Origin: Eledone cirrhosa
Lineage: Eukaryota
Assembly (NCBI GenBank): GCA_964016885.1
Contig: OZ024741.1
Coordinates: 361,336,001-361,400,000 of the forward strand
Direction: 5' to 3'
Length of the DNA stretch: 64,000 nt
Below the pieces are notes generated by a model, which was not told the origin of the DNA, searched no databases, and was given only the letters and a program-made list of their open reading frames with translations. Each line of letters starts with the position of its first letter. Position 1 is the first letter of the stretch. Of this stretch, positions 7,818-63,600 are shown one piece after another. The position numbers and the translations under genes were made by a program.

Positions 7818-8730
7818 TCATCATCATCATCATCAGGTTTAGCGTCCGTGTTCCACGCTTGCATGGGTTTGGACGGGGGTTTTCCCACTTGAGGCAAGAG
7901 TGGTTGTCTTGCTCGCATAGGACTGTCTGGCGGGTTTTCTACAGTTGGATGCCCTTCCTAACACCAACCACATTTACAGTGTGGGTCTGGGAGGTTTTTA
8001 CCGTGTTGCCTACACGGCCACATTTACAGCGTGGACTGTGTGTTTTTTGTCGTGACACCTACACGATCTCATTTGTTTCGGCCTGGATGTTGTGGGACCA
8101 ACATAACTGTACATTGAAAGGGGCGGTGTGGATGGGGTGGAGGTGGTGGGACGGGGGGGTGTTTTGATAGAGATGCCTACTGACTGTAGTAGGTTTTACT
8201 ATGTATTTAGGTAAGGCGGGTCTTCTCTATTACTGAGTACCGCCAAAGGTCTCGGTCCATTGACATTGTCTTGGAGAGGTGTAAGCGTGTGAGGTCGGAA
8301 TTTATCAGCTCGTCCCATTATTTTCTGGGTCTGCCTACTCCGTGGCTACCGTCTATCTTTATTGCCCTGCACTTTGTTATACAGCTGTCGTCTTTCATGC
8401 GCATCACGTGACCATACCAACGTAGCCTTCTCTCGAGTAAACAACATCTGATCCCTCTTATTTTTAATTTTTTCCTTAGTTCGTTTATGCTTTGCCGTTC
8501 ACGTATATTACTATTGCACATCCAGCGGAGCATGCAAGCTTCGTTCCTCTCTAGTCTGCGTATATCCTCTGCACACAATGCCCAGGTCTCACTGTCATGC
8601 AGCATTGCTGTTCGTATGCAGGCATCGTATAATCTGCCTTTCATTTTTAGGGAGAACCCTCTAGCGGCTAATAGTGGTATAAGCTCTCTGAACTTTTTCC
8701 ATCCAGTTCTGACTCTAGCTACTGTACTTA
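7818..8730 (-). mobile_element. RTE LINE 3' fragment with 3' region and (TGA)n tail, inserted into a SINE
   Basis: ORF 8318-8773 is near-identical to the copy at 55-714; (CAT)n at 7818; the SINE sequence gtaccagtaat|gcactgg resumes on either side. Confidence 0.8.
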
Positions 8731-8792
8731 TGCACTGGCATAATTGCTGGCCTTGTGCCAAAAATAGAAACAATTATTATTATTATTATATT

Positions 8793-9899: not shown

Positions 9900-10860
9900 T
9901 AATTGTGTATACAGGGCAAACACTAATCATGTTAGTGTTGCACATGATAGTGGGGTGGCTAGCGTAGTCATGTATGAGAAGCCTTCAACAGTCATCAAGC
10001 AACTGCACAGCCTTTTTCCCTTCCGGGTATATAGAACTTCTGCTCAAGGAACTCAAGATACAAATCTCAATACTGCCACCCTCAATGTTGGCACCCTGAA
10101 AAGTAAATCATCATCCTGGCAGGCAACTTCAATGGATATGTTGGACAGTACCAGGACAGATTCACTGGAGTTCAAGGCGGCTATGGTTATGGCTCAAGAA
10201 ATGAAGAGGGAGTGAAGCTCCTGGAATTCTATGATGCAAATGAACTAACCATCCACAATTCAAATTTCAGGAATCACATACCGATCAAGCAAACACACAT
10301 GACAAAATGATTTCTTACTTGTAAGACAACAAGATAAACGGACTATAATGAATACTAAGGCCTTCCCTGGAGAAGAATGTGAGGCAACTACAAGAGAAGT
10401 TCCTAGCCAAGAATAAGCCGCTATACCTAGCTTTTGTTGATTTAGAAAAAGCCTTTGACAGAGTACCTCGATCTATTATCTGGTGGTCTTTAAGGAAATT
10501 AGGTGTAGAAGAGTGGTTTTTGAGAGCAGTGCAAGCCATGTACAGAGGAGCTGTCAGTAAAGTGACAATAAGAAGTGATTTTAGTGAGGAATTCAAGGTA
10601 CATGTAAGAGTTCACCAAGGCTCAGTTCTTAGCCTACTGATGTTCATCATAGTCCTCCAAGCCATAACAGACAAGTTTAAAACTGGCTGTCTATGAAACT
10701 ACTCTATGCAGAGGATCTGGTCCTTATAGCTGAATCCATTAAAGAACTAGAGAATAAGTTCTGACCAAGGAAACTGAATTTGAAATCAAAGGGTCTGAGA
10801 GTAAACTTAGCCAAGACTAAAGGGATCATAAATAAGAAAGAAGATAGAGCCCTGATTCCC
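9900..10860 (+). mobile_element. Degraded RTE LINE (endonuclease and RT pieces)
   Basis: ATLNVGTL; RQLQEKFLAKNKPLYLAFVDLEKAFDRVPR; VHQGSVLS. Confidence 0.85.
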
Positions 10861-15378: not shown

Positions 15379-16167
15379 TATAGAATATACATCATCATCA
15401 TCGTTTAACATCTATCTTCTACGCTAGCATGGATTAGTTCTAATTTTCTGTCTGTTTGTGTGTGTCTCTCTCTTTATATATAAATATATATAAAGAGAAA
15501 GACACACACAAACAGACAGAAAATTAGAACTGAAAACATGAAGAGCCAGATCAGATATTGCAAAGCTCTAGCAATTCTATCAACTACTTCTTAACAGATA
15601 CTTTATTTATCAACTGTGAATGTATGAAATGCCAAGTTAGCCTCAGTGGAATTTAACCCTTTAGGATTTACATGACTCTATATATACTATTGTATTTTTG
15701 CAGTAAACTATCTCACATTATATTAAACCTATGAAATTTTGATATTATTTAAGCTGAGAATAGTACCTTAACATAAGTATGAACAGCCAGTTACAGCTGG
15801 TTTGAACAGAAAGAGGAGAGAGAATTCTGGCCAGATACAGTCGGTTTAAATGTTAAAGATTAAACTAGGAGTTCAGAAAGCTAGAACTATTAGCACAAAG
15901 CTGTAATAACTTTGCCATCATTACATATAGAAATTATGATTAGACCTTTCATTACAAAATTTCTTATTAAATACACTCTAGTAATATAACTAACTTACTC
16001 AGTTTTTATCTAATGTTTGGAACATAACTTAATAAAGGTTCTTAAATAAAATCATTATGGAATATAAACACTTTAAAACAAATAATTATATATCATAGAA
16101 ATAGGCGTAGTTTCAAGTAGTTTGGTTTAAAAAGGGTTAATGAGCTTTTAATAATTTCTTCTTCTAG

Positions 16168-17334: not shown

Positions 17335-17371
17335 TATGATGGATGAAGAAACAGGATTTGATGAAAACCAG
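17335..17371 (+). CDS. Calpain short linker exon (G-MMDEETGFDENQ)
   Basis: Polypyrimidine tract, ttttcAG acceptor and GTAACA donor; 37 nt in phase 2/0, which is what the frame requires. Confidence 0.85.
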
Positions 17372-19067
17372 GTAACAATTAAAGTTTACCATCTTTAAAT
17401 TCCTTCATTTAGTTAAGAATCAAAAGTAGTTCTAATTAATTGACATTTTGACAAAATGACATCAACACATTTAACCCCTGCAGTGCCATAGACGACATAA
17501 CTCGTCCTAACATGTATGCATTCCAGTGCCACGGATGAGATAACTCATCCTAACATGTTTTCCAACAGTTCCTAACTTCAAAGTTATGAACTCGTTTCCA
17601 ACAGTTCATAACTTCAAAGCTAGATGGAGTTACTAGTTTATTGATGTAATGTTTGTCAATCATTCAGACATGTGTTGTTAATAAATGTTTGTTTAAAAAA
17701 TAGTAATTTTATTGAAAAAAACCAGCACAGCAACTGTAGCTGTATAAAATATATGCAACAGTCAACAGGTTAAAAGTCTTTAGAATTAGCCACAACTTCC
17801 TGTGTAATGACAACACAAATATATCTGAGATAGACAGAAATGAAATGTTGATGTTTGTGATGTTTGATTGGGGCTCACTGAGCCAGATACCCATCTATAT
17901 TAATGCAGTTGCTGCCTCTCTACATTAATCCTTTCAATTCCAAACCACCTGGATTATTCTTTTAATTATTTGAAAATCATAGGCTGTGTCATTCACTAGA
18001 AATATGATAATGAATGGGTTAAATCCATTGATACTAAACTGCCTGAAACCACACTTGGTTTCACATCACATAACTGTTGGTTTTAAATGGTTTATATAAA
18101 ATACTTTGTTCAGTTGTGCTCCAAACACTAATTTAATGAAAATGTTAAGTTTTTACTAAATTCCTCCAAATTCTTGATTATTTTCAAAATGATGTAAAAG
18201 TTATAGACAGTGTATTTCATTATAAATATGGTAATAAAAGGGAATGGAGACATTTCTATGAGCAAACTAGGCAACCACTTCCAAGCTAACAAGGGGGCCA
18301 CTAAAAAGTCACTGATCTTGCTAGACAGAGCAGCCACATCTCCCTTATATCATACCCTGTGGTGTGCTCCAATAATCTAGCTGCTAAGAAATTTGGTTGG
18401 CTGGCTGGCTGGTTGGTTGGTTGGTTAGAGAGTCAAAGTCTTTGTAGTCAGTCTTCTATGGTAATTGGGTATCCATGTTAAGCTTAGCAACAATATGGTG
18501 CTAGCAAGGGAGCTCACTAGAACCCGGTTGACTAAGGAGGATTGCTTCAGCCCAGGGTTGAAACTTAGCAGGCAAAAGATCTTGTGTTGTGTCAAGCAGT
18601 AACGAGATCACAGTTGTGAATAGTTATCAGTTAACAGCCCATTTGATACAATTAAGCTCCAATCTAACCTTTTAAATAAGGCTGCACCCCAGCATGGTTG
18701 CAGTGTAATGAGTGAAATCAGTAAAAGAGTACCATCTGAAGAAAGGATACATTGGATAATGTAATCCTTTATATACTATGTCTGGAAAGAAATAACAGGT
18801 TGGTGATGGCTGGATTGTATTTACTCGCAGGTCTGCTTGATCTGGGCCAACCAATAACATTAGGTGGTCAAAGTAATCTACAACTGAACATCCAAGTCAA
18901 GAGGGGAGGGCTTCACACTCTGTCATGCATACTCAATCTGTTTATGCCTAAACCATCCTTTGAGAGTCCAGTTCACCTCACTCTTATCCAAACGACATCC
19001 CTCAATCATATCAATAAAGTGAATATTTCAATCTTTTTCATTTTTATTATTATTACTAGTGGTAGGG

Positions 19068-20371: not shown

Positions 20372-20729
20372 ATATACAATATATTAATAAATGGAAACTA
20401 TATTTATAAAACCATAATTATTTTATTATATATATTTCAAGGGCGACCAAGGTAAATTATGGAGCGCTTTCATCAGATAAAATACAGATTTGTTTTATAA
20501 ATAAATATTGACACACCCGGAAAAAAGACAACCTCAACGGTTGAAATTCGCGAATTTCAACCGTTGAGGTTGTCTTTTTTCCAGGTGTGTCAATATTTAT
20601 TTATAAAACAAATCTGTATTTTATCTGATGAAAGCGCTCCATAATTTACCTTGGTCGCCCTTGAAATATATATAATAAAATAATTATGGTTTTATAAATA
20701 TAGTTTCCATTTATTAATATATTGTATAT
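20372..20729. repeat. ~358-bp near-perfect palindrome with no spacer
   Basis: Centre ttgaaattcg|cgaatttcaa at 20550/20551; one visible mismatch. Confidence 0.95.
20617..20682 (+). ncRNA. Minimal hammerhead motif in right arm of palindrome (mirror copy 20419-20484 on - strand)
   Basis: tattttat-CTGATGA-aag...ctt-GAA-atatatat-A-ataaaata; 8-bp stem I; palindromic stem III. Confidence 0.7.
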
Positions 20730-20814
20730 TTACTCCACGAAACTGTTGAGTGCTTTATATCAGTTATAAAAATGTTTAAGCTTGTTGAATCCCAACAAAT
20801 TAAATATAACCTCT

Positions 20815-20857
<43 letters not shown>

Positions 20858-23800
20858 CATATATATATATGCACACATATATATATATATATGCACATAT
20901 ATATATATACACATATATATATATATTTATATATATATATATATATCAAGTATATTAAGTATATCAAGTATATCCATAATGGATATATTTGCTGGTTTAC
21001 ATATATATATTCTTTTTGTCACAAGATGGAAATGATAAATATCTGTCGTCTTCAAGCTCAACCCTGCCATAGCTCCCCTTCCAAGGGAGGCTCTTTTGTG
21101 ACAGAGAGAGCTACATCTAGACACGAGACTGTTGCTTTCCAATCAATAGTACCAACTCATGTTGCACGAGCTGCAGCTGTGCCACCGAAGGTAGTGACTG
21201 GAGTGTGAGCCACACCCAAAAGCATGGAGTTACACAAAAACTTCACTGGTTTCTGCATGATTTCTGATTCACAAATTCACCTTTTCAACCCACCAAATCC
21301 TATCCTATTTGATAAATTTTATTTTATTTTAGAAAATATTTTTGAAGGTAGGGAAATATCTGGGTTGTCTTGTCTGCTGTGTATCGTGTATTTATGTACT
21401 GTACATTATCTTCAATATTTTAACCTTCCATTCCACCTAGCTACTATTTGCTTCTTTGTCCATCATAATGTGTTATCAATGTGCCATTAATATTGGTTTT
21501 ACCAGAGCTGAGTTAAAGCAATAAGGGTCTATGGGCTAGAGAACATTTGGAGCCTACAGCACCTACTCACAAAAAACTTAATGTAAATTAGATGTATCTG
21601 AATGTAGGGCTTGAGATTCCAGCATTGATCTATGCCAATCTCTAAAATAGAGGTAATATTCAAAGAAAAGGAAATGTATTTGATAAAAATTATAATATTT
21701 CAAATTTTGACAAAAAATGTATTTCATAGCTATATTCCAATATATATTGATAGTAGGACAGGGGCCTAGGGCTGCTGCCCACATAGTCTGTATTTAAATC
21801 CAGTTCTTGGTTTTACAAGATCGGCATGTCATGAGAATCTTCATTAAAGATACTCTATATCAATTGTTTAGGGTTACAGATGCACCATCAATGAAATACA
21901 CTACAGGGATTGTATGAAGTCATACATATTTCATGACTGATATATACTATAGGGATTTGTGTATGTCATACATATGTTGTCAATGAAATATACTACTGGG
22001 TTTGTCTGAAGTCACCTTTTATCAAGGGATTGTCTGAAATCACACATATTTTGTTGATGAAATATACTATAGTGGTTGTGTATGTCACACATGTTTTGTC
22101 AATGAAATATGCTACAATGATTGTGTATGTCACATATGTTTTGTCATTGAAATATACTATAGGGGTTATATCAGGTCACACATGATGTTGTCAATGAATT
22201 AGCAGTGACACTGACACAGTATGATTCAGAATAGAGACATGTATGAAAGCATATACAATATGTTTGGGTATAATGATTTCTTTGTATAATAAATATGCAT
22301 AGCCCGATCACAGCAAGACTATATATGTTTATTATACATAAACATATTCTATATTCTTTCATATATGCCTATTTTGAATCACACTGTGTTAGTTACTGTT
22401 AATTAATACTAATCCATCAAGCCCACACTATATACAAATAAGTATCATAAAAATGTATTATTTGTAAAATCTATATATAAGAAGTATTAGTTTCTATACC
22501 TCAGTACCAGGTGAATAAGCTTCACTGACCATATATTAAGAATCCTGAAATACTAGTATTTGATATTCTCTCATGGTTACAGAGGTAGCTGTGATATGAT
22601 CACAGTTTAAAATACTCACAACAAAACTACGCATGTTTATTATACATAAATATTTTGTATATGCTTTCATATACAGCTTTATTGTCAATTAAATATACAA
22701 CAAGGTTATATAAGGTATAACATATATTGTCAATATTGCATAGAATCATACAGATACTGACATTGTAAGATAGTATAGTAGCTGTATATAGTCAGATACT
22801 ACCATTATATTGCCAAGATTTTATAATCTTCAGATATATTTCATCGTTATCATCAGCTGAACACCCTAACCACTGAAACACACTTTCATATTTACAGAGG
22901 AGAGATGCTGTGTTAGACTAGAAATATAATTGCTAGCATCTCATTGTTATGGAACAACATTAATGACATAAAAGAGTCAAATATCTAATTTAGAATTCCA
23001 CATATTGAATTTACTGTCATATCACGACACAATGAATGTCAATGGCCATGTAAGAGAGAATTAGTGTGAGTGTGTGTGTGTGTGTCTGAGTATGTACGTG
23101 TGTGTGTTTTGTGTATCTGTCTATGTGTATCTATGTGTGTGTCTGACTGCATGTCTGTGTGTTTCTCTGTGTGTGAGTCTGTCTGAGTACATGTCTGAGT
23201 ATGTCTGTCTGTCTTTATTTCTGTCTGAGTGTGTGTTTGTATATCTGTATCTGTGTGTGTGTCTGACTACATGTCTATGTGTATCTGTGTGTATCTGTGT
23301 GTGTGTGTGTCTACATGTCTGTGTGTGTCTGTCTATATCTCTGTGACTGTGTGTGTCAGTGTGTTTCTGTGTGTCTGTCTGAGTACATGTCTATGTATGT
23401 ATGTCTGTGTGTGTGGAGGATTATAGGATAATATTTAGTATTTCAGTCACCTTCTTGAAATATTAAACTGAAGTTTGTGTCTGTATTATTGCTGATGTTG
23501 TTGTTGTTGTTGAAATGCAATAGCCAAGTGATCAAAGTACTGCGTTCTTGATACCAATGTCATGAGTTCATGCTGCACACTTGGTGTCATCTTTTATCCT
23601 TGAACAAAATACTTGACTCTACTTGCCACCTAACCACACTGTTTCCAATTAAGAAAACATTTTCATTCTGATTGTAGTTGTTGTTGGTTGTAATCATCAT
23701 CACTGTTGTTGTTTGTTGTTTTTTTATGAGTAGATCTCAATAGACAAACAATATATATGTGTATTCTTAAAGAGATCAGCCCTGTCTTCTTTGAGCATAA

Positions 23801-31371: not shown

Positions 31372-31709
31372 TTATTTTTATTTATTTTTCATTTTATTTT
31401 TTTTAGATTCCTAACCAATTTAGCATTCCATGTTATTTGCATTATGTCTTTTTCCAATGAAATAAAACACCTTTTGTTGGACTTCGAGTTTCTATAAAAC
31501 ACACACACATACATATGTATGTGTATGTATATATATATATATATATATATATACATACACATACATATGTATGTGTGTGTGTTTTATAGAAACTCGAAGT
31601 CCAACAAAAGGTGTTTTATTTCATTGGAAAAAGACATAATGCAAATAACATGGAATGCTAAATTGGTTAGGAATCTAAAAAAAATAAAATGAAAAATAAA
31701 TAAAAATAA
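31372..31709. repeat. ~340-bp palindrome centred on (TA)n
   Basis: Arms read as reverse complements outward from the TA run at ~31528-31553. Confidence 0.92.
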
Positions 31710-33284: not shown

Positions 33285-33420
33285 ACCTTTCAAGAAGCAA
33301 CAGATGAAGAAAAGGAACAAGGAGAAGCACTGAGAAGCAAGTTCGTGGAAATTGCTGGATCAGATATGGAAATTAATTCATATGAACTCCAAGATGTCCT
33401 GAATGCTGTCTTCAAAAGTG
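33285..33420 (+). CDS. Calpain exon, start of penta-EF-hand domain (…FVEIAGSDMEINSYELQDVLNAVFKS)
   Basis: ctttAG acceptor and GTTGGT donor; AGxDMEIxxxELxxxLN is the EF1 signature of calpain domain IV. Confidence 0.93.
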
Positions 33421-40815: not shown

Positions 40816-41008
40816 ATTTATATATATATTTATGTATATAATTGTCCTTCAAGGTAATATTTTATGCAATGCCACTTCAACGGTATTTTGCTGTTCTAAC
40901 AGCTTCCATACGCCGAGTTTTCCCATTTTCTTGATAATCCTAATACACTCATGTCTCAAAAGTCTATTTTCGAGTTAATTTCTTTATATATACATATATA
41001 TATATATA

Positions 41009-41070
<62 letters not shown>

Positions 41071-41078
<8 letters not shown>

Positions 41079-41405
41079 AACAAAAGATGGTTAAAGGAGT
41101 TCCATGTATTTTATTATGCGCATTTCAAAAACAAACATCATCATGCAATAATATTTGTGTTTTCATCAGATAAAACAGGAGGACATGATATGAAGGCTAA
41201 AAACCCTTGTGGATAGTGCAGTTTTAAATCAACATATCATATGTTGATTTAAAACTGCACTATCCACAAGGGTTTTTAGCCTTCATATCATGTCCTCCTG
41301 TTTTATCTGATGAAAACACAAATATTATTGCATGATGATGTTTGTTTTTGAAATGCGCATAATAAAATACATGGAACTCCTTTAACCATCTTTTGTTCTT
41401 ATATA
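41071..41405. repeat. ~335-bp palindrome with a 1-nt centre
   Basis: Centre caacatat-c-atatgttg at 41238; arms are complementary by eye. Confidence 0.95.
41299..41369 (+). ncRNA. Minimal hammerhead motif in right arm of palindrome (mirror copy 41107-41177 on - strand)
   Basis: tgttttat-CTGATGA-long stem II-GAA-atgcgcat-A-ataaaata; palindromic stem III; AUA triplet. Confidence 0.75.
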
Positions 41406-41826
41406 TTATGTATACTCCAGTCCTACAAACTGTAGAGCGCTTCTTATCCGATATCTGCATTGCTTTATTGTACTACAATAAAACTCACCTCCTACATATA
41501 TATATATATATATATGTGTGTGTATGTGTGTGTATTTATAATTATATATATATATATAATTATCATCATCATATATATATATAATATATATATAATTATA
41601 TATATATATAATTATATATATATATAATGGGTAACTTTTTAAATTGTTAGAATGTTGTGTTGAAATGTTTATATATTGTTAATGTTACTGCTTTGTGTTG
41701 TTAATGATATAATCATGTTACTGTTTACACTCATGTATGTATTTTTGAATGGAAATTAAATTAATTTCAGCTAACAGAATGATGGTAAGGTGCGTGCACA
41801 TACAAATATATATAGAGAGAGAGAGA

Positions 41827-41973
41827 TAGAAGTAGTAACACAACAGTTAGTTCACCATACCGAGAACAAATGTTTCACCTTATGCGGATCATCAGAGATC
41901 CGAGCTGATGATCCGCATAAGGTGAAACATTTGTTCTCGGTATGGTGAACTAATTGTTGTGAAACTACTTCTA
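41827..41973. repeat. ~147-bp inverted repeat with short spacer
   Basis: Arms tagaagtagt...tcatcag and ctgatga...actacttcta. Confidence 0.9.
41900..41940 (+). ncRNA. Minimal hammerhead motif within inverted repeat
   Basis: ccgag-CTGATGA-tccgcataaggt-GAA-acatttgt-T-ctcgg; 5-bp stem I ccgag/ctcgg. Confidence 0.7.
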
Positions 41974-42257
41974 CCAAACTCGCCACATGGACTGTGTGCT
42001 CTACTACTGCGGATATAATCTTCCAGTGTTCTACTATTATATATATATATATTCATTTATTCATTTACTTACAATACAGTTATGATAAAGAAGTTCAGTG
42101 AAAACTCACTTTGCTGAAGCACATTAGCTATGTTGTAAGAAAATGAATAAATCAACTTATATATCTACTCTATTTTAAATACTGAGTGTGTTCTCCTTTG
42201 TAGACTACTAAGACCACTAGATAAGGACCCAATATATACACATATCATATATATATA

Positions 42258-48125: not shown

Positions 48126-48769
48126 TGTACACATATATATATATATATATATATGTATATACATGTATATATATATGGAGGCACATGGCTTAGTGGTTAG
48201 AGCATTGGCCTTGCAATCGAAAGGTTGTGAGTTCAATTCTCAGACTGGGTGATGTGTTGTTTCCTTGAGCAAGACACTTTATTTCACATTGCTCCAGTTT
48301 ACTCAGCTGTAGAGATGATTGGGACTGGGGTCCCTATCATTCCACTGTAAAGTGGTCGTGGAGGTGCCACGGCAAAAAAGCACCCAGCACTCACTGTAAA
48401 TGAGGTTGGTGTTAGGAAGGGCATCCAGCTGTAGAAATCAAGCCAGAATCAGTTCCCGTCCCACCCTTGCAAGCAGGGAAAAGTGGACGTAAAATGAAAT
48501 GATGATGATGAATGATGCTATATATACATATATATATACATATATGTACATATCTATATATGCACATATATATATATATATACATATATGTACATATATA
48601 TATATGCACATATATATATATATGTATACACATATATATATATGTATACACATATATATATATATATATACACACATAAATATATAGATAAATATACACA
48701 TATACATACACGCATACACATCATGCACATACACATTTATATATATATTGTGTGTGTATATATATATAT

Positions 48770-52504: not shown

Positions 52505-52563
52505 AGTTTGAATTTGAAGGTTTTGAAATTGAGGCTTGTCGAAGCATGGTTGCCATGCATGAT
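52505..52563 (+). CDS. Calpain PEF exon (EFEFEGFEIEACRSMVAMHD)
   Basis: ttttcAG acceptor; GFxxxxCRSMVAxxD motif; followed by the U12-type donor GTATCCTTT. Confidence 0.93.
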
Positions 52564-57622: not shown

Positions 57623-58367
57623 TGTAACGAAATTTTGTGTGGTTGTAACGATAAGTGGAGAGAATGAATTGTTGGTATGATGGTTTCAATGTAAAGAATA
57701 ATACCAGGATTGTGTTGTTACAAAGTTTATTTTATTATAACAATATTCAATTTGAATATTGAATGATAAAATCAATAACACGAAATATTCGTACAATAAT
57801 TTGGTGGCTCTTCGAGCCACGTAAATACAAGTATCACAGAATACCATTATAATATAATTTGTACTGTATCTGAAAGATACAACGTGAATAAACAGAAATG
57901 GTGCGTGTGAAAATGCAAACAGTGTCAACTTACTATGAATGCGTGTGTACGTATCAGTATATTTGCTTGTTTTAGTAGTAGTAGTAAGTGACCAGCCCAG
58001 CGGGTGAGAAATAAGTGACAGACTGGTTTTTCGTAATGAGAGCTTGTAAATGCGACTTGTCTTATCTGTATATCACTTCTTTTCTCCCGGGGCGTAAACA
58101 ACCCCTGTATTTATAAGGGTTGAAGTTAGAAGGATAGATATATCCTCTGAACTTTGGTTAGAGTCTCCCAAGGGATTAGTTTGCCAAGCGTAAACAACTC
58201 AGAAAGATGGATATATCCTCTGACCTATTTTCTGTCAGGTGTAAACACCTCTGACCTGTGTTTAGCATCTCCCAAGGGGTTAGTCTCTTGAGTGTAAACA
58301 ACTTACCACGGCTTGTCCCAGAGGCAGGAAAGCTCAGATTCGGTTTTGAATCTTCGCCGCCGTTATA
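57623..58367 (-). repeat. 3' LTR
   Basis: TGTAAC...GTTATA termini on the + strand; polypurine tract adjacent at ~58371-58380. Confidence 0.9.
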
Positions 58368-58884
58368 GTACCCTCCTTCCAGTGAGAAAGCTAAGATTTA
58401 ACGATCTAGGTGCATGTGAAATGAAGATAGGTATGACTAGGTGTGTTGTTGAAGAAAATCAGTAAAAAAAAAAAAAAATACATGAAAGTCATTCACAAAC
58501 AGGCGAAATGAAAAAAAAAATACACGAAAGTCATTTACAAACAGGCGAAATGAAAGAAAACATGCAAAGCAAAAGAAATTTATATGCAGGAAAATGCACT
58601 GTGATGGTACATAAAATTGAAAATGTTCGTACAAAAAGTTTGTTGATTAAAAGTTCGTTCATTTCATAGAAACGGAAAAATGTTCTTTTGTCTGTTCTTT
58701 TGATATGGGTGATGCACAGAGTTAATTGATTTGTGTGTAGCAATAGTTCATGACCACAGAAATTGGCCGATTCGTTGAAATGTACAAATTAGCCGAAATG
58801 TTGACTAGATGCATAATTTGTACTTACTCGATCAACTTGTACGTATCGCGTGGGCCATTGGACTGTTCTTCCAGATTTGGTGTG

Positions 58885-61800
58885 TCAGGGTTGTGCAGAA
58901 TTTGTCGTGTTTGTGTCGGGCAAAGTTGTTGGTGAGTCTGCTGGAGAAACGGCGGGTACTGGTGGCAAATCCTGTTCTATGAATGCTTTTTTTAAACGAT
59001 CAATGGAGACAGTATTTCGTTTCCCCTTCAAGTCGAGGACGAAATACTTAGGGCGTTTCTGTATCACCTTATAGGGCCCGGAATACGGCGGACGAAGTTG
59101 CGATGGAATACCGTCATTTCTAACGAAAACATGCATCCATGTATCGATGTCTTCTGGTATGTGTGAAGTAACATGCTGTTGTTTAGGGGTTGAAGGAGAC
59201 AGATGCGACATCGATGACCGTAAACGGTGCACATATTTTGTAGGGTCTGGAAGTTCTTGTGGCGAAACAGGAGCAATCATTTGTCCGGGTAGAGTGAGTA
59301 CAGTGCCATACACCATTTCAGCTGGAGAATGTCCGACTCCCTCCTTAACAGCGGAACGAATACCAAGAAGAATGAGTGGGAGGTATTCGAACCAGTTAGT
59401 GGAGTCTTTGTAAGCCTTGATAGATGCTTTTAGCTGGCAGTGGAAGCGTTCTACCATGCCGTTAACGGCAGGGTGATACGCTGTTGTACGGATGTATTTG
59501 CACCCGAGGAGACGAATCAGCTCGGTAAATAGGTGCGAATCGAATTGACGTCCGCCTCCGTAGTGATGGTCGTGGGTGTGCCGAAACGCAAAACCCAGTG
59601 AAACACTAGCGTTTTGGCGACAGTTTCCGCAGTAATATCCGTCAGGGGAAAAGCTTCTGGCCAGCGAGAAAATCGGTCTACACAGGTGAGAAGATAAGTG
59701 TAGTTGTGAGAAGGAGGCAAAGGTCCAACGGTGTCTATGTGCACATGTTGGAACCGTGCATCAGGTGTTGCGAAAGAACCGATCAGAGCTTTGATGTGCC
59801 AGTGAATTTTTGCCTTCTGGCACGCGATACAGTTCCTAGCCCATTCCCGGGTGTCCTTGTTGATGTTGGGCCACACAAAGCAGGCAACCATCAGTTTCTG
59901 CGTGGCGCGGACGCCAGGATGTGCCAGAGAATGCAGTGCTGAGAAAACGTTGCGTCGATGTTTCTGGGGCACGTATGGGCGCTCGTGGCCTGTGGAGATG
60001 TTGCACCAAATATAACCCGAAGAAGAGGGCAGCGGGCATTCCTGCAATTTCAAGGATGATTTCCGGAGTTGCAGCAGTTCCTCGTCATTCTGTTGATCCG
60101 CTGCAATCTTCTGGAGGTCGATAGGGGCAGTGGTCTGGATTGCGTTAAGCTCCATGCGCGATAGGGCATCAGCTGCTGAGTTGGTGGCATCCTTAATGTA
60201 CCGAATATCAGTAGTGTACTGAGAAATGAAGTTCAGATGTCGGACCTCCCAGGGTGAGTGTCGGACAGGCTTGGCGTTGAACGCGTACACTAGTGGTTTG
60301 TGCTTGGTGTATATGGAGAACACACGACCTTCTAGCATGTGTCGAAAATGCTTGACGGTAAGGTATGCTGCCAATAATTCACGACTGAATGTGCTGTACT
60401 TAGTTTCGGCGGGTTTTAATCGCTTAGAAAAAAAAGATACAGGTCGCCAAATATTGCCAGAGAGTTGTTGAAGCACACCTCCAACTCCGAAATTGGATGC
60501 ATCAGTCAATAAACACATTGGGGCGTCAGGTTTGGGGTAACTCAGCATTGTAGCCTCAGACAACATTTTCTTCAACTCAGCGAAAGCGGTACATTCTTTT
60601 TCGCTGAGATTGATGTTTGCGTTTTTGGTTGTACGCTGCCGCAGCAAATCTGTGAGTGGTTGGGCTGTCTCTGCACAGTGGGGTATAAATCTTCTGTAGA
60701 AGTTAACCAGGCCAAGAAATTCTCGCAGTTTGCAGAGAGATGTAGGTTGTGGAAAGTCAATGATGGATTTGACTTTCTCCTTAAGTGGCGAATACCATCT
60801 TTGTCAATGATGTGTCCCAGAAAATGAAGGGACGCAACTCCGAACTCACATTTTCTGGGGTTGATAACAATTCCATATTCACGCAAACGTGTGAATAGGA
60901 GATCTAGGTGTTTCTCATGTTCTTCATCAGAGCTGCTGGCCACCAGTAAGTCGTCAATGTATGCGTATACAAAAGGTAGACGTCTGGTGACTGTATCGAT
61001 GAATCGCTGGAATGTCTGCGCTGCATTTCGTAAACCGAAAGGCATATGCAGAAATTCGAACATTCCAAATGGTGTTGTGATGGTGGTCTTAGGAATATCT
61101 GCAGGCTCAACGGGTATCTGATTGTAAGCTCGCACAAGATCGATCTTCGAAAATATGCGAGCCCCGTGCAGCGAGCTAGAGAAGTCCTGTAGATGAGGCA
61201 CTGGATAAGAGTCAGGAACGGTGCAGTTGTTCAGTGCATGGTAGTCGCCACAGATTCACCAGTCGTTCGACGACTTCTTGGTTACACAGTGTATGGGTGA
61301 GGACCAGTTGCTGCTGGACGGACGTATGATGCCGAGATCCAGCATGTGCTGAAATTCTTGTTTGACGGACTTCAGCCGGTCTGGTGGTAGCCTTCTAGGT
61401 CGTGCAGCGACAGCTGGGCCGTGTGTTTTTATGTGATGTGTGACATCATGTTTTACAGGGCAAGCGTTGAATAGTGGTCGAGCTACGTCTGGGTATTTGT
61501 TGATGATGTGGTTGTGCCGGGTTGTTGTTGTCGATCGTGAAATGACTGGACTGACTGTGGCTATCCTAGCAGCTATGCCGCTGGAGTTGTCAACGAGTCG
61601 TTGGTTTTTCAGGTCCACTAGCAGCGAGAAGTGCTGAAGAAAACCAGCTCCTAAAATAGGGGTCGGCAGCTTACCCACAATGAATGCCCACTGGAAAGTG
61701 CGGCGTAGTCCCAAATTTAGTGTCAGGGACTGTTCTCCATAGGTCAGAATATGTGAGTGATTCACCGTCTGGAGCCAGGCTGGTGTCTCTCTCCTTTTTC

Positions 61801-61990
61801 CAGGAACGCAGGAAACCGGGATGATGCTGACTTCAGCACCGGTGTCGACCAGGAAACGCGTGCCTGTGACGCGATCCTGAATGAAGAATAGGCGACTTTG
61901 GTTATGAGGGCCAGAAACGTCCATCGCATTCAGTTTCTGGCTGTGTTGTTTCCCTGATTCGTTTTCGAAACAAATGAACAGGGATAGCTG
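58885..61990 (-). pseudogene. pol: pol (PR-RT-RNaseH-IN), broken into four ORFs
   Basis: ORFs 61256-62032, 60572-61201, 59517-60647 and 58885-59457 carry consecutive domains. Confidence 0.9.
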
Positions 61991-62810
61991 CACTTTTGTG
62001 CTCGTCTCCTGAATTTTTGGTGGTACCAACACATTCCTGGTGAATCCTGAGATGCGCTCGGACTTCTTGAGCGACCACCAAATCGGCGAGTTCGACTGTT
62101 GGACCGACGCGTGGCAGGGGTGCCCAGTGACAAGGCCTTAATTTGTTGCGTCAAGGCCTGTATCTGTGTTGCTTGCTGTGCCAGTAACAGGTGTAGATCG
62201 GGCATCTCTGTGGCACTGGAGGGCTGAAGGAAAGGATTGGTGGGAGGCACGGCTGGCGTCACATTCGCTAAAGTTGAGTGCGGATGTGGTACCTCCATGA
62301 TCTTATCTGCCAGCTTGCGAGTTCTTCTATGGTGGTGAACTCCCTGGTGGATGTTAGTACAACTTGTGTGGCAGAAGGCAAACGATGGAGGAAGAGTTGC
62401 TTGAAAATTTCATCCGGGAGTTTATGTTCTCCCAGGAGCTGCTTCATTCGTCGTAGGAGTTGCGTCGGCTTTTTATCTCCTAATTCCTCCGATATGAGGA
62501 GCTGGTGCAAACGCTTCTGCTGCGACTCCGACGTCCTCTTAATTAATGTTCTTTTAAATGTCTCATATGACACAGAGCCGGGTGGTGCTAAAATGAGGTC
62601 TCGAACCTCATTCATAATCTCCGGAGACATCAAACCGATGACATGTGTGAGACGGGATGCCTCGCTAACGATCCGGTTCGATGCGAACTGCGCTTCGATG
62701 TGTGCGAACCACAGTGTTGGATCGTGAACCCAGAATGGTGGAATTCTTAATGTAAATGCCGCTCGGACTGCCATTTCTGCCATAGATGAATCGTTGTGTG
62801 CTAGAGACAT
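61930..62810 (-). pseudogene. gag: gag, frameshifted
   Basis: LRIPPFWxxDPxLWFAHIEAQF; ELGDKKPTQLLRRM; CHCC motif in a second frame. Confidence 0.85.
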
Positions 62811-62861
62811 CGTTTGTAGTGGATGATCAGAAGGTTGTGAGTGTTTTACGAGTTCACCAAT

Positions 62862-63600
62862 TGTAACGAAATTTTGTGTGGTTGTAACGATAAGTGGAGA
62901 GAATGAATTGTTGGTATGATGGTTTCAATGTAAAGAATAATACCAGGATTGTGTTGTTACAAAGTTTATTTTATTATAACAATATTCAATTTGAATATTG
63001 AATGATAAAATCAATAACACGAAATATTCGTACAATAATTTGGTGGCTCTTCGAGCCACGTAAATACAAGTATCACAGAATACCATTATAATATAATTTG
63101 TACTGTATCTGAAAGATACAACGTGAATAAACAGAAATGGTGCGTGTGAAAATGCAAACAGTGTCAACTTACTATGAATGCGTGTGTACGTATCAGTATA
63201 TTTGCTTGTTTTAGTAGTAGTAGTAAGTGACCAGCCCAGCGGGTGAGAAATAAGTGACAGACTGGTTTTTCGTAATGAGAGCTTGTAAATGCGACTTGTC
63301 TTATCTGTATATCACTTCTTTTCTCCCGGGGCGTAAACAACCCCTGTATTTATAAGGGTTGAAGTTAGAAGGATAGATATATCCTCTGAACTTTGGTTAG
63401 AGTCTCCCAAGGGATTAGTTTGCCAAGCGTAAACAACTCAGAAAGATGGATATATCCTCTGACCTATTTTCTGTCAGGTGTAAACACCTCTGACCTGTGT
63501 TTAGCATCTCCCAAGGGGTTAGTCTCTTGAGCATAAACAACTTACCACGGCTTGTCCCAGAGGCGGGAAAGCTCAGATTCGGTTTTGAATCTTCGCCACC
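62862..63600 (-). repeat. 5' LTR (outer ~6 nt missing)
   Basis: Direct repeat of 57623-58361 at offset 5239; PBS (TGG) 2 nt inside. Confidence 0.9.

Follow-up and report, generated by a model that had tools for sequence, protein, structure and literature searches.

What is the hammerhead-bearing palindrome at 41.2 kb of this stretch, a new self-replicating RNA element or what a retrotransposon left behind on insertion? The first-pass annotation of the window (the whole 64,000-nt stretch of Eledone cirrhosa contig OZ024741.1 analysed here) had described a palindrome of ~335 bp flanked by (TA)n and offered both kinds of explanation. An inverted-repeat scan restricted to non-simple sequence located it at the annotated coordinates, as a perfect palindrome of 337 bp (41070–41406) with two arms of 168 bp, no mismatches and one unpaired base, 41238. 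The features of the element, of its sister at 20.5 kb and of the surrounding gene are as follows.

33285–33419 and 52534–52563, plus strand: calpain exons flanking the 41.2-kb element, which lies in the intron between them (tblastn of Octopus calpain against the window).
40985–41077, no strand: (TA)n microsatellite directly next to the left arm and probably the insertion target (sequence).
41070–41237, minus strand: left arm, which repeats the hammerhead-bearing segment in inverted orientation and without the tail, probably as an inverted pLTR (complementary to the right arm at 168 of 168 bases).
41107–41177, minus strand: type I hammerhead, predicted cut after 41115 (descriptor).
41231–41245, no strand: junction of the inversion, where the unit has its fixed 5' boundary, with the hexamer CATATG at 41238–41243 (junctions and contigs lacking 5 nt).
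41239–41406, plus strand: right arm, a direct copy of the hammerhead-bearing segment, likely a pLTR (inverted-repeat scan, descriptor, family reads).
41299–41369, plus strand: type I hammerhead with A41361 as the last base before the predicted cut; activity is predicted for the dimer alone (descriptor, family variants, energies).
41407–41497, plus strand: 91-nt tail on the right arm only, with a conserved motif and a terminal hairpin (deep coverage in runs X1 and X21, homology).
41496–41630, no strand: (TA)n/(TG)n microsatellite that follows the tail and probably represents the second half of the insertion target (sequence).
20372–20819, plus strand: sister element of a related family, with 179-bp arms, one mismatch, stem III ATATATAT and a tail of ~90 nt on the right arm only (scan, descriptor, homology).

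The palindrome is symmetric and the element that contains it is not. The left arm abuts (TA)n directly, as had been annotated, whereas on the right the tail intervenes, the arm continuing for 91 nt before (TA)n is reached. The unit is thus 259 nt long (168-nt arm plus 91-nt tail) and is joined head to head with an inverted, tail-less copy of its own arm. A target-site duplication is unreadable at this element because the flanks on both sides are microsatellite. Splice-like letters (AG|GT near 41270 and CCAG at 41417–41420) outline a candidate intron around the hammerhead.

A descriptor of the type I hammerhead matched each strand of the palindrome once. On the plus strand, stem I comprises 8 bp (41299–41306 with 41362–41369) and is followed by the core CTGATGA (41307–41313), a stem II of 36 nt (41314–41349) forming ~15 bp, GAA (41350–41352) and the palindromic stem III ATGCGCAT (41353–41360), which leads to an AUA site with A41361 as the cleavage nucleotide. 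The first-pass annotation had recognized this layout of a long stem II, a palindromic stem III and an AUA site, and had placed the core about 70 nt from the centre; the distance is 69 nt here and 74.5 nt in the 20.5-kb element. The descriptor also returns the cleavage site predicted earlier, after 41361, and mirrors it on the minus strand, the cut itself remaining a prediction. Strict matches in the window number four (two palindromes, two strands each) against none in 60 block-wise dinucleotide shuffles of the same 64 kb. Rfam hammerhead models found no match, either at the gathering score over the window or at E values up to 10 over 40900–42200; the ribozyme assignment therefore rests on the descriptor and on variation within the family. 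Rfam microRNA matches below the gathering score were rejected as a mere reflection of the hairpin.

For analysis of this variation, 41071–41490 was used as a 420-nt reference and four of the 23 sequencing runs listed were compared. Two of these, X1 (contigs) and X21 (raw reads), carry one organism label and come from different studies. Along the 420-nt stretch, tail included, 3,878 X1 contigs and 4,990 X21 reads matched, and the 41.2-kb element thus belongs to a high-copy family of which the tail is a part. Summed family depth, a rough measure that does not equal copy number, exceeds the depth of single junction contigs (about 10–65) by four to five orders of magnitude. When the arms are folded onto each other, this rough depth rises in the 5' to 3' direction from about 0.5–0.9 to 2.0–2.2 million; the tail, at about 0.8 million, is covered as deeply as the 5' part of the arm. 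Such a profile is expected for 5' truncation combined with a tail on one arm of two. The family has two 3' ends: matches either stop near 41414 and pass into (TA)n (271 X21 reads, 48 X1 contigs) or continue through the tail.

The junctions within the family have one fixed and one variable side. In 20 of the 24 junctions listed (at least 69 exist), one side falls no more than 14 nt from 41238, and the start of the partner ranges from 41273 to 41466; under uniform starts, the binomial probability of this clustering among the listed junctions is about 1e-13. The 41071–41490 reference is blind to junctions upstream of 41239, and those inside the arm would be visible, yet they are rare among the junctions listed. 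Seven of the boundary junctions show inserted letters, 1 to 12 nt in number. A further 23 X1 contigs, accounting for ~11% of the summed depth at that position, lack 5 nt at 41233 and are thereby converted into a perfect palindrome centred on CATATG; this symmetric class was absent from 111 X21 reads. A longer form of the unit also exists, with the same upstream letters preceding the boundary in 270 X21 reads and one contig of run X6 (30 letters are visible). At position 41271, both arms of the 41.2-kb element carry G and 497 of 504 X21 reads have T. The arms thus share family-rare alleles, which indicates a common template, either a single molecule or a single source locus, or else a later homogenisation of the two.

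Matches were spread over 14 organism labels, which we rejected as a sign of conservation across species: the two other-organism runs among the four compared contributed 2 and 6 contigs only, their longer matches stand at a depth of 2–5, and they look like trace DNA. No match to the element was found in metagenome, viral and prokaryote genome contigs.

Variation in the family bears on the ribozyme fold. Among 40 of the 86 variants, G.U pairs change to Watson-Crick pairs at 41300 (498 of 766 X21 reads), 41340 (692/989), 41326 (409/941) and 41329 (417/943), and the sole variant in the core falls on the free position N7; pair-weakening variants occur in the same set at 41318 and 41324. G at 41314 (215 of 880) and the mirror of C at 41349 (181 of 683) would together, if linked, form the canonical G10.1-C11.1 pair. 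A variant at 41355, present in 1181 of 1957 X21 reads and absent from X1, breaks the palindrome of stem III. The counter-examples at 41318, 41324 and 41355 notwithstanding, the family variants keep the ribozyme fold.

Computed energies distinguish monomers from dimers. The active monomer fold (-6.4 kcal/mol) is weaker than the best monomer fold (-10.6), and the stability of the monomer is no greater than that of shuffled sequences; the active dimer of the 41.2-kb family, at -32.7 kcal/mol, comes within 1 kcal/mol of the best dimer (-33.7). For the 20.5-kb family, the respective dimer values are -16.2 and -22.1. Because of these differences between monomer and dimer folds, the source RNA likely carried a dimer-type hammerhead. 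In the palindromic copy, which as a whole folds at -279.5 kcal/mol, the ribozyme is predicted to be silent, locked in a 168-bp hairpin; the motif would be sequestered on either transcribed strand, since transcription from either side reaches the antisense arm before the sense motif.

The first-pass annotation had regarded the 20.5-kb palindrome as different in sequence and identical in design. This holds for the 5' part and the spacer, where homology between the two elements is undetectable (928 and 1927 of 2000 shuffles, respectively, reach the score). The hammerheads and the tails, in contrast, are homologous, with the observed score reached by 0 of 2000 and 1 of 2000 shuffles, respectively. 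Both tails contain a shared 5-bp hairpin with one compensatory pair; the fold of the tail at 20.7 kb is more stable than that of shuffles (z -3.3), and the fold of the tail at 41.4 kb is not. In each tail (41408–41497 and 20718–20816) there is also an open frame; the two frames have a TVE-F-S motif in common, and silent positions account for several of their differences. This segment may be either the start of a PLE frame or a conserved RNA hairpin. A word search with the tail peptide gave no match and Atlas scores stayed below 0.8; a profile match (P0050) was rejected, as it concerns a 53-residue tandem repeat and its score is summed over the repeats.

Several other palindromes are present in the window. 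A third hammerhead palindrome, of another family, occupies 41827–42035; it has 69-bp arms with three mismatches, its junction lies at the core, and its right arm alone carries a tail, 62 nt long, that ends at (TA)n. Its motif, CCGAG-CTGATGAT...GAAACATTTGTT-CTCGG, resembles the hammerheads of Hydra-clade PLEs. Pairing of the same-strand ribozymes at 41307 and 41905 into one retrozyme unit was considered and rejected, because the two belong to different families and to separate insertions. A decayed palindrome starts in the (TA)n of the third element (42040–42167; outer arms of 43 nt with 81% complementarity). At 31372–31709 lies a perfect 338-bp palindrome, of the same size class as the hammerhead palindromes, with a (TA)n/(CA)n microsatellite at its centre; it has no CTGANGA core, and its GAAAC-TCGAA-GTC stretch could be half a hammerhead. 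A 96-bp palindrome at 15436–15531 has a (TA)n centre and one arm mismatch.

The class to which the 41.2-kb element belongs is already known; opposite-strand hammerhead pairs at insertions of Penelope-like elements (PLEs) are in print (PMC4209133, PMC8557442). Passages of PMC4209133 describe dual minimal hammerheads of Schistosoma mansoni on opposite strands, 100–700 bp apart, as well as a truncated PLE with an opposite-strand hammerhead copy at its 5' end. The minimal type I hammerheads of metazoan PLEs treated there share with ours the CUGANGA and GAAA core, the palindromic helix III and a predicted dependence on dimers. The motif described here differs in having A10.1-U11.1 in place of the G-C of the PLE consensus (a G-C variant occurs in the family), no 5' bulge, a stem I of 8 bp and a long stem II of ~15 bp. 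In PMC8557442 and its supplement (S1, S2), Hydra-clade PLEs with 3' hammerheads include Hydra-1_Obim of Octopus bimaculoides; Penelope-13_HM combines a (TA)n target, an inverted 5'-truncated copy and a hammerhead on each strand. The Hydra-clade elements resemble the 41.2-kb element in the type I hammerhead near the 3' end, the short and mostly palindromic stem III and the (TA)n target, but in the motifs listed for them stem II is a short helix and the sequences are different, and exact motif searches for the 41.2-kb family had no match in the portion of that supplement that was searched.

The closest anatomical counterparts come from Adineta vaga, in whose Penelope insertions, as described in passages of PMC3846280, an inverted pLTR lies adjacent, a single one of the inverted pLTRs carries the tail, and head-to-head junctions contain palindromes for which fold-back self-priming was proposed. 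Pen2a, Pen2 and Pen3a (PMC3846280; scheme in PMC8557442, Fig. 2) likewise combine an inverted pLTR of ~170–220 nt, a one-sided tail, a junction palindrome and an AT-rich target. In contrast, the element described here has no reading frame and consists of terminal segments only, its arms are fully symmetric, and its tail of ~90 nt is longer than the 30–40 nt in print. The insertion scheme in PMC8557442 also includes an inverted pLTR and a (TA)n bias. According to parts of PMC11167929, a PLE of the anole cuts and extends both target strands, prefers AT-rich DNA and uses two initiation sites that define the tail; dimerisation of its protein is predicted, and its insertion can do without hammerhead cleavage. 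Retrozymes are head-to-tail tandems in which two same-strand ribozymes release a monomer (PMC7229834; 10.64898/2026.07.22.740005). The non-LTR type is similar to our element in its type I hammerhead, its unit length of some hundreds of bases, its low GC content and its likely PLE ancestry, but differs in that its tandem pair lies on one strand, whereas the motifs of the 41.2-kb element lie on opposite strands. PLEs make up 6.83% of the Octopus vulgaris genome (PMC13282606). In the literature searched we found no description of the octopod family, which repeat catalogues may already hold.

The high copy number, the fixed boundary, the recurrent fold-back centre, the one-sided tail and the (TA)n surroundings match this published anatomy. 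We therefore consider the 41.2-kb element, at a probability of roughly 0.8, to have arisen when the 3' end (pLTR) of an endonuclease-bearing PLE inserted in 5'-truncated, dead-end form, in line with the stereotyped PLE insertion product proposed in the first-pass annotation; the palindrome is most likely a non-coding leftover of that insertion rather than a new self-replicating RNA element. The marks of such an insertion that are present comprise the head-to-head inverted arm, the one-sided tail, variable 5' truncation among copies, the (TA)n target and, as defined by the descriptor and unmatched by Rfam models, a hammerhead of type I whose helix III is palindromic. The one-sided tail recurs in the 41.2-kb and 20.5-kb elements and in the unrelated element at 41827–42035. 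An autonomous PLE was rejected for the 41.2-kb copy, as Pfam gave no reverse transcriptase or GIY-YIG endonuclease among the 90 frames of at least 55 aa found in the two introns that host the elements. This negative result, like that of the searches with tail peptides, which returned no PLE protein linked to the family, also weighs against the PLE reading, as do a tail longer than those in print, the departure of the ribozyme from the PLE consensus and from the Rfam models, and the variants at 41355, 41318 and 41324.

By analogy with published PLE biochemistry, the PLE endonuclease would cut AT-rich (TA)n DNA, and reverse transcription would then proceed from two sites on the RNA, the end of the tail and the end of the arm. 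The two new strands would be joined head to head, one of them stopping at a variable place and the other starting at the fixed boundary, which may be a transcription start in the pLTR. Whenever both strands reached the 5' boundary, a near-perfect palindrome would arise, either by fold-back self-priming or by annealing of the CATATG ends.

The sharp 5' boundary would equally suit a 259-nt unit with a transcription start of its own at 41239, that is, a non-autonomous, SINE-like derivative mobilised in trans by a PLE through the same insertion mechanism. Two diverged families share one geometry, in the centre-to-core distance as in the length of the tail (91 and 90 nt), and non-autonomous PLE derivatives are known (PMC8557442; 10.64898/2026.07.22.740005). 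However, a transcription start in the pLTR would fix the boundary just as well, and the longer form seen in X21 reads and the X6 contig argues against a unit that begins there; a SINE-like derivative is, in our judgement, unlikely. Considerably less probable still is that the perfect symmetry was created by assembly or library preparation, as a fold-back chimera or by polishing over a single repeat copy. The family-rare alleles common to both arms would fit such an origin, as would the hammerhead-free palindrome of similar size at 31372–31709, and among the records listed none spans the centre of the 41.2-kb locus. Nevertheless, inversion junctions at the boundary appear both in contigs and in raw reads of two separate studies, the sister palindromes carry arm mismatches (one at 20.5 kb, three at 41.9 kb), and the tail-less end running into (TA)n is a feature of the family.

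An undescribed retrozyme-like system, the other suggestion of the first-pass annotation, would require that the whole palindrome replicates, both strands being cut by hammerheads and the RNA being copied or circularised. The intact motif on each strand and the recurrence of the symmetric fold-back class in the X1 contigs speak for it, but with the ribozymes on opposite strands no transcript holds two of them, and excision of a monomer is impossible with a single ribozyme per strand. The hairpin, moreover, dwarfs the active fold in both its monomeric and its dimeric form, the tail is one-sided, and tandem-like, back-going joints number 0 among 15 of the 69 joints in the joint table. Partner arms vary widely in length among the junctions listed, and random variation in arm length had itself been named in the annotation as speaking against a distinct system. 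With one ribozyme per strand and opposite-strand pairs already in print, the suggestion is not supported, and we deem it highly improbable. A MITE or Foldback-type DNA transposon, in which terminal inverted repeats carry a hammerhead-like motif by chance, could explain the long inverted repeat, the AT-rich target and the lack of coding capacity; it is largely refuted by the tail on one side, which makes the ends asymmetric. Depth is polar, one inner boundary stays fixed whereas the inner junctions otherwise differ, and the RNA fold is maintained across variants, all of which run counter to a DNA transposon and leave it with hardly any credibility.

Within the PLE insertion reading, we propose a role for the hammerhead that is speculative and, on balance, improbable. 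The palindromic stem III might serve as an RNA dimerisation signal that supplies a dimeric RT-endonuclease with two templates, one per cut strand. The inverted arm would then be a strong-stop-like cDNA of fixed length, begun at the inner initiation site and completed at a defined 5' end of the RNA, and the cDNAs would be joined via CATATG. If so, the hammerhead would act in double-ended insertion by pairing RNAs instead of processing them, and the junctions of the family would preserve a natural archive of the formation of PLE inverted ends. We did not find this proposal in the open-licence literature searched.

The formation of PLE inverted ends and the role of the hammerhead are stated as open questions in passages of PMC8557442, PMC11167929 and PMC3846280. 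With its fixed arm boundary and recurrent fold-back centre, the family offers a useful read-out of inverted-end formation, and, as a young, high-copy family whose arms are bounded at a constant position on one side and at a variable one on the other, it makes rival inverted-end models testable by genome data alone. Such insertions also place perfect hairpins of 170–180 bp in introns, two of them in the calpain gene. Cephalopods edit RNA heavily, and these intronic hairpins would be candidate substrates for A-to-I editing and small-RNA pathways.

The calpain exons lie on the plus strand and are mostly 65–96% identical to Octopus calpain, the best tblastn matches being to Octopus and Argonauta. 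The gene spans 5136–54685, with at least nine exons matched to Octopus calpain, and the sister 20.5-kb element lies between the exons at 17336–17374 and 21020–21202. The window also holds other mobile elements. On the minus strand, 57686–63311 is an LTR retrotransposon with frameshifted gag-pol frames, which we take from its motifs to be of Ty3/gypsy type; its direct repeats (57686–58072 and 62925–63311) translate identically, which indicates a young insertion. Frame fragments of a LINE reverse transcriptase, presumably RTE-like by their motifs, occur at 55–1225, 8318–8773 and 10352–10696. A tRNA-like match at 48184–48247, barely over the Rfam gathering score, is probably the head of a tRNA-derived SINE.
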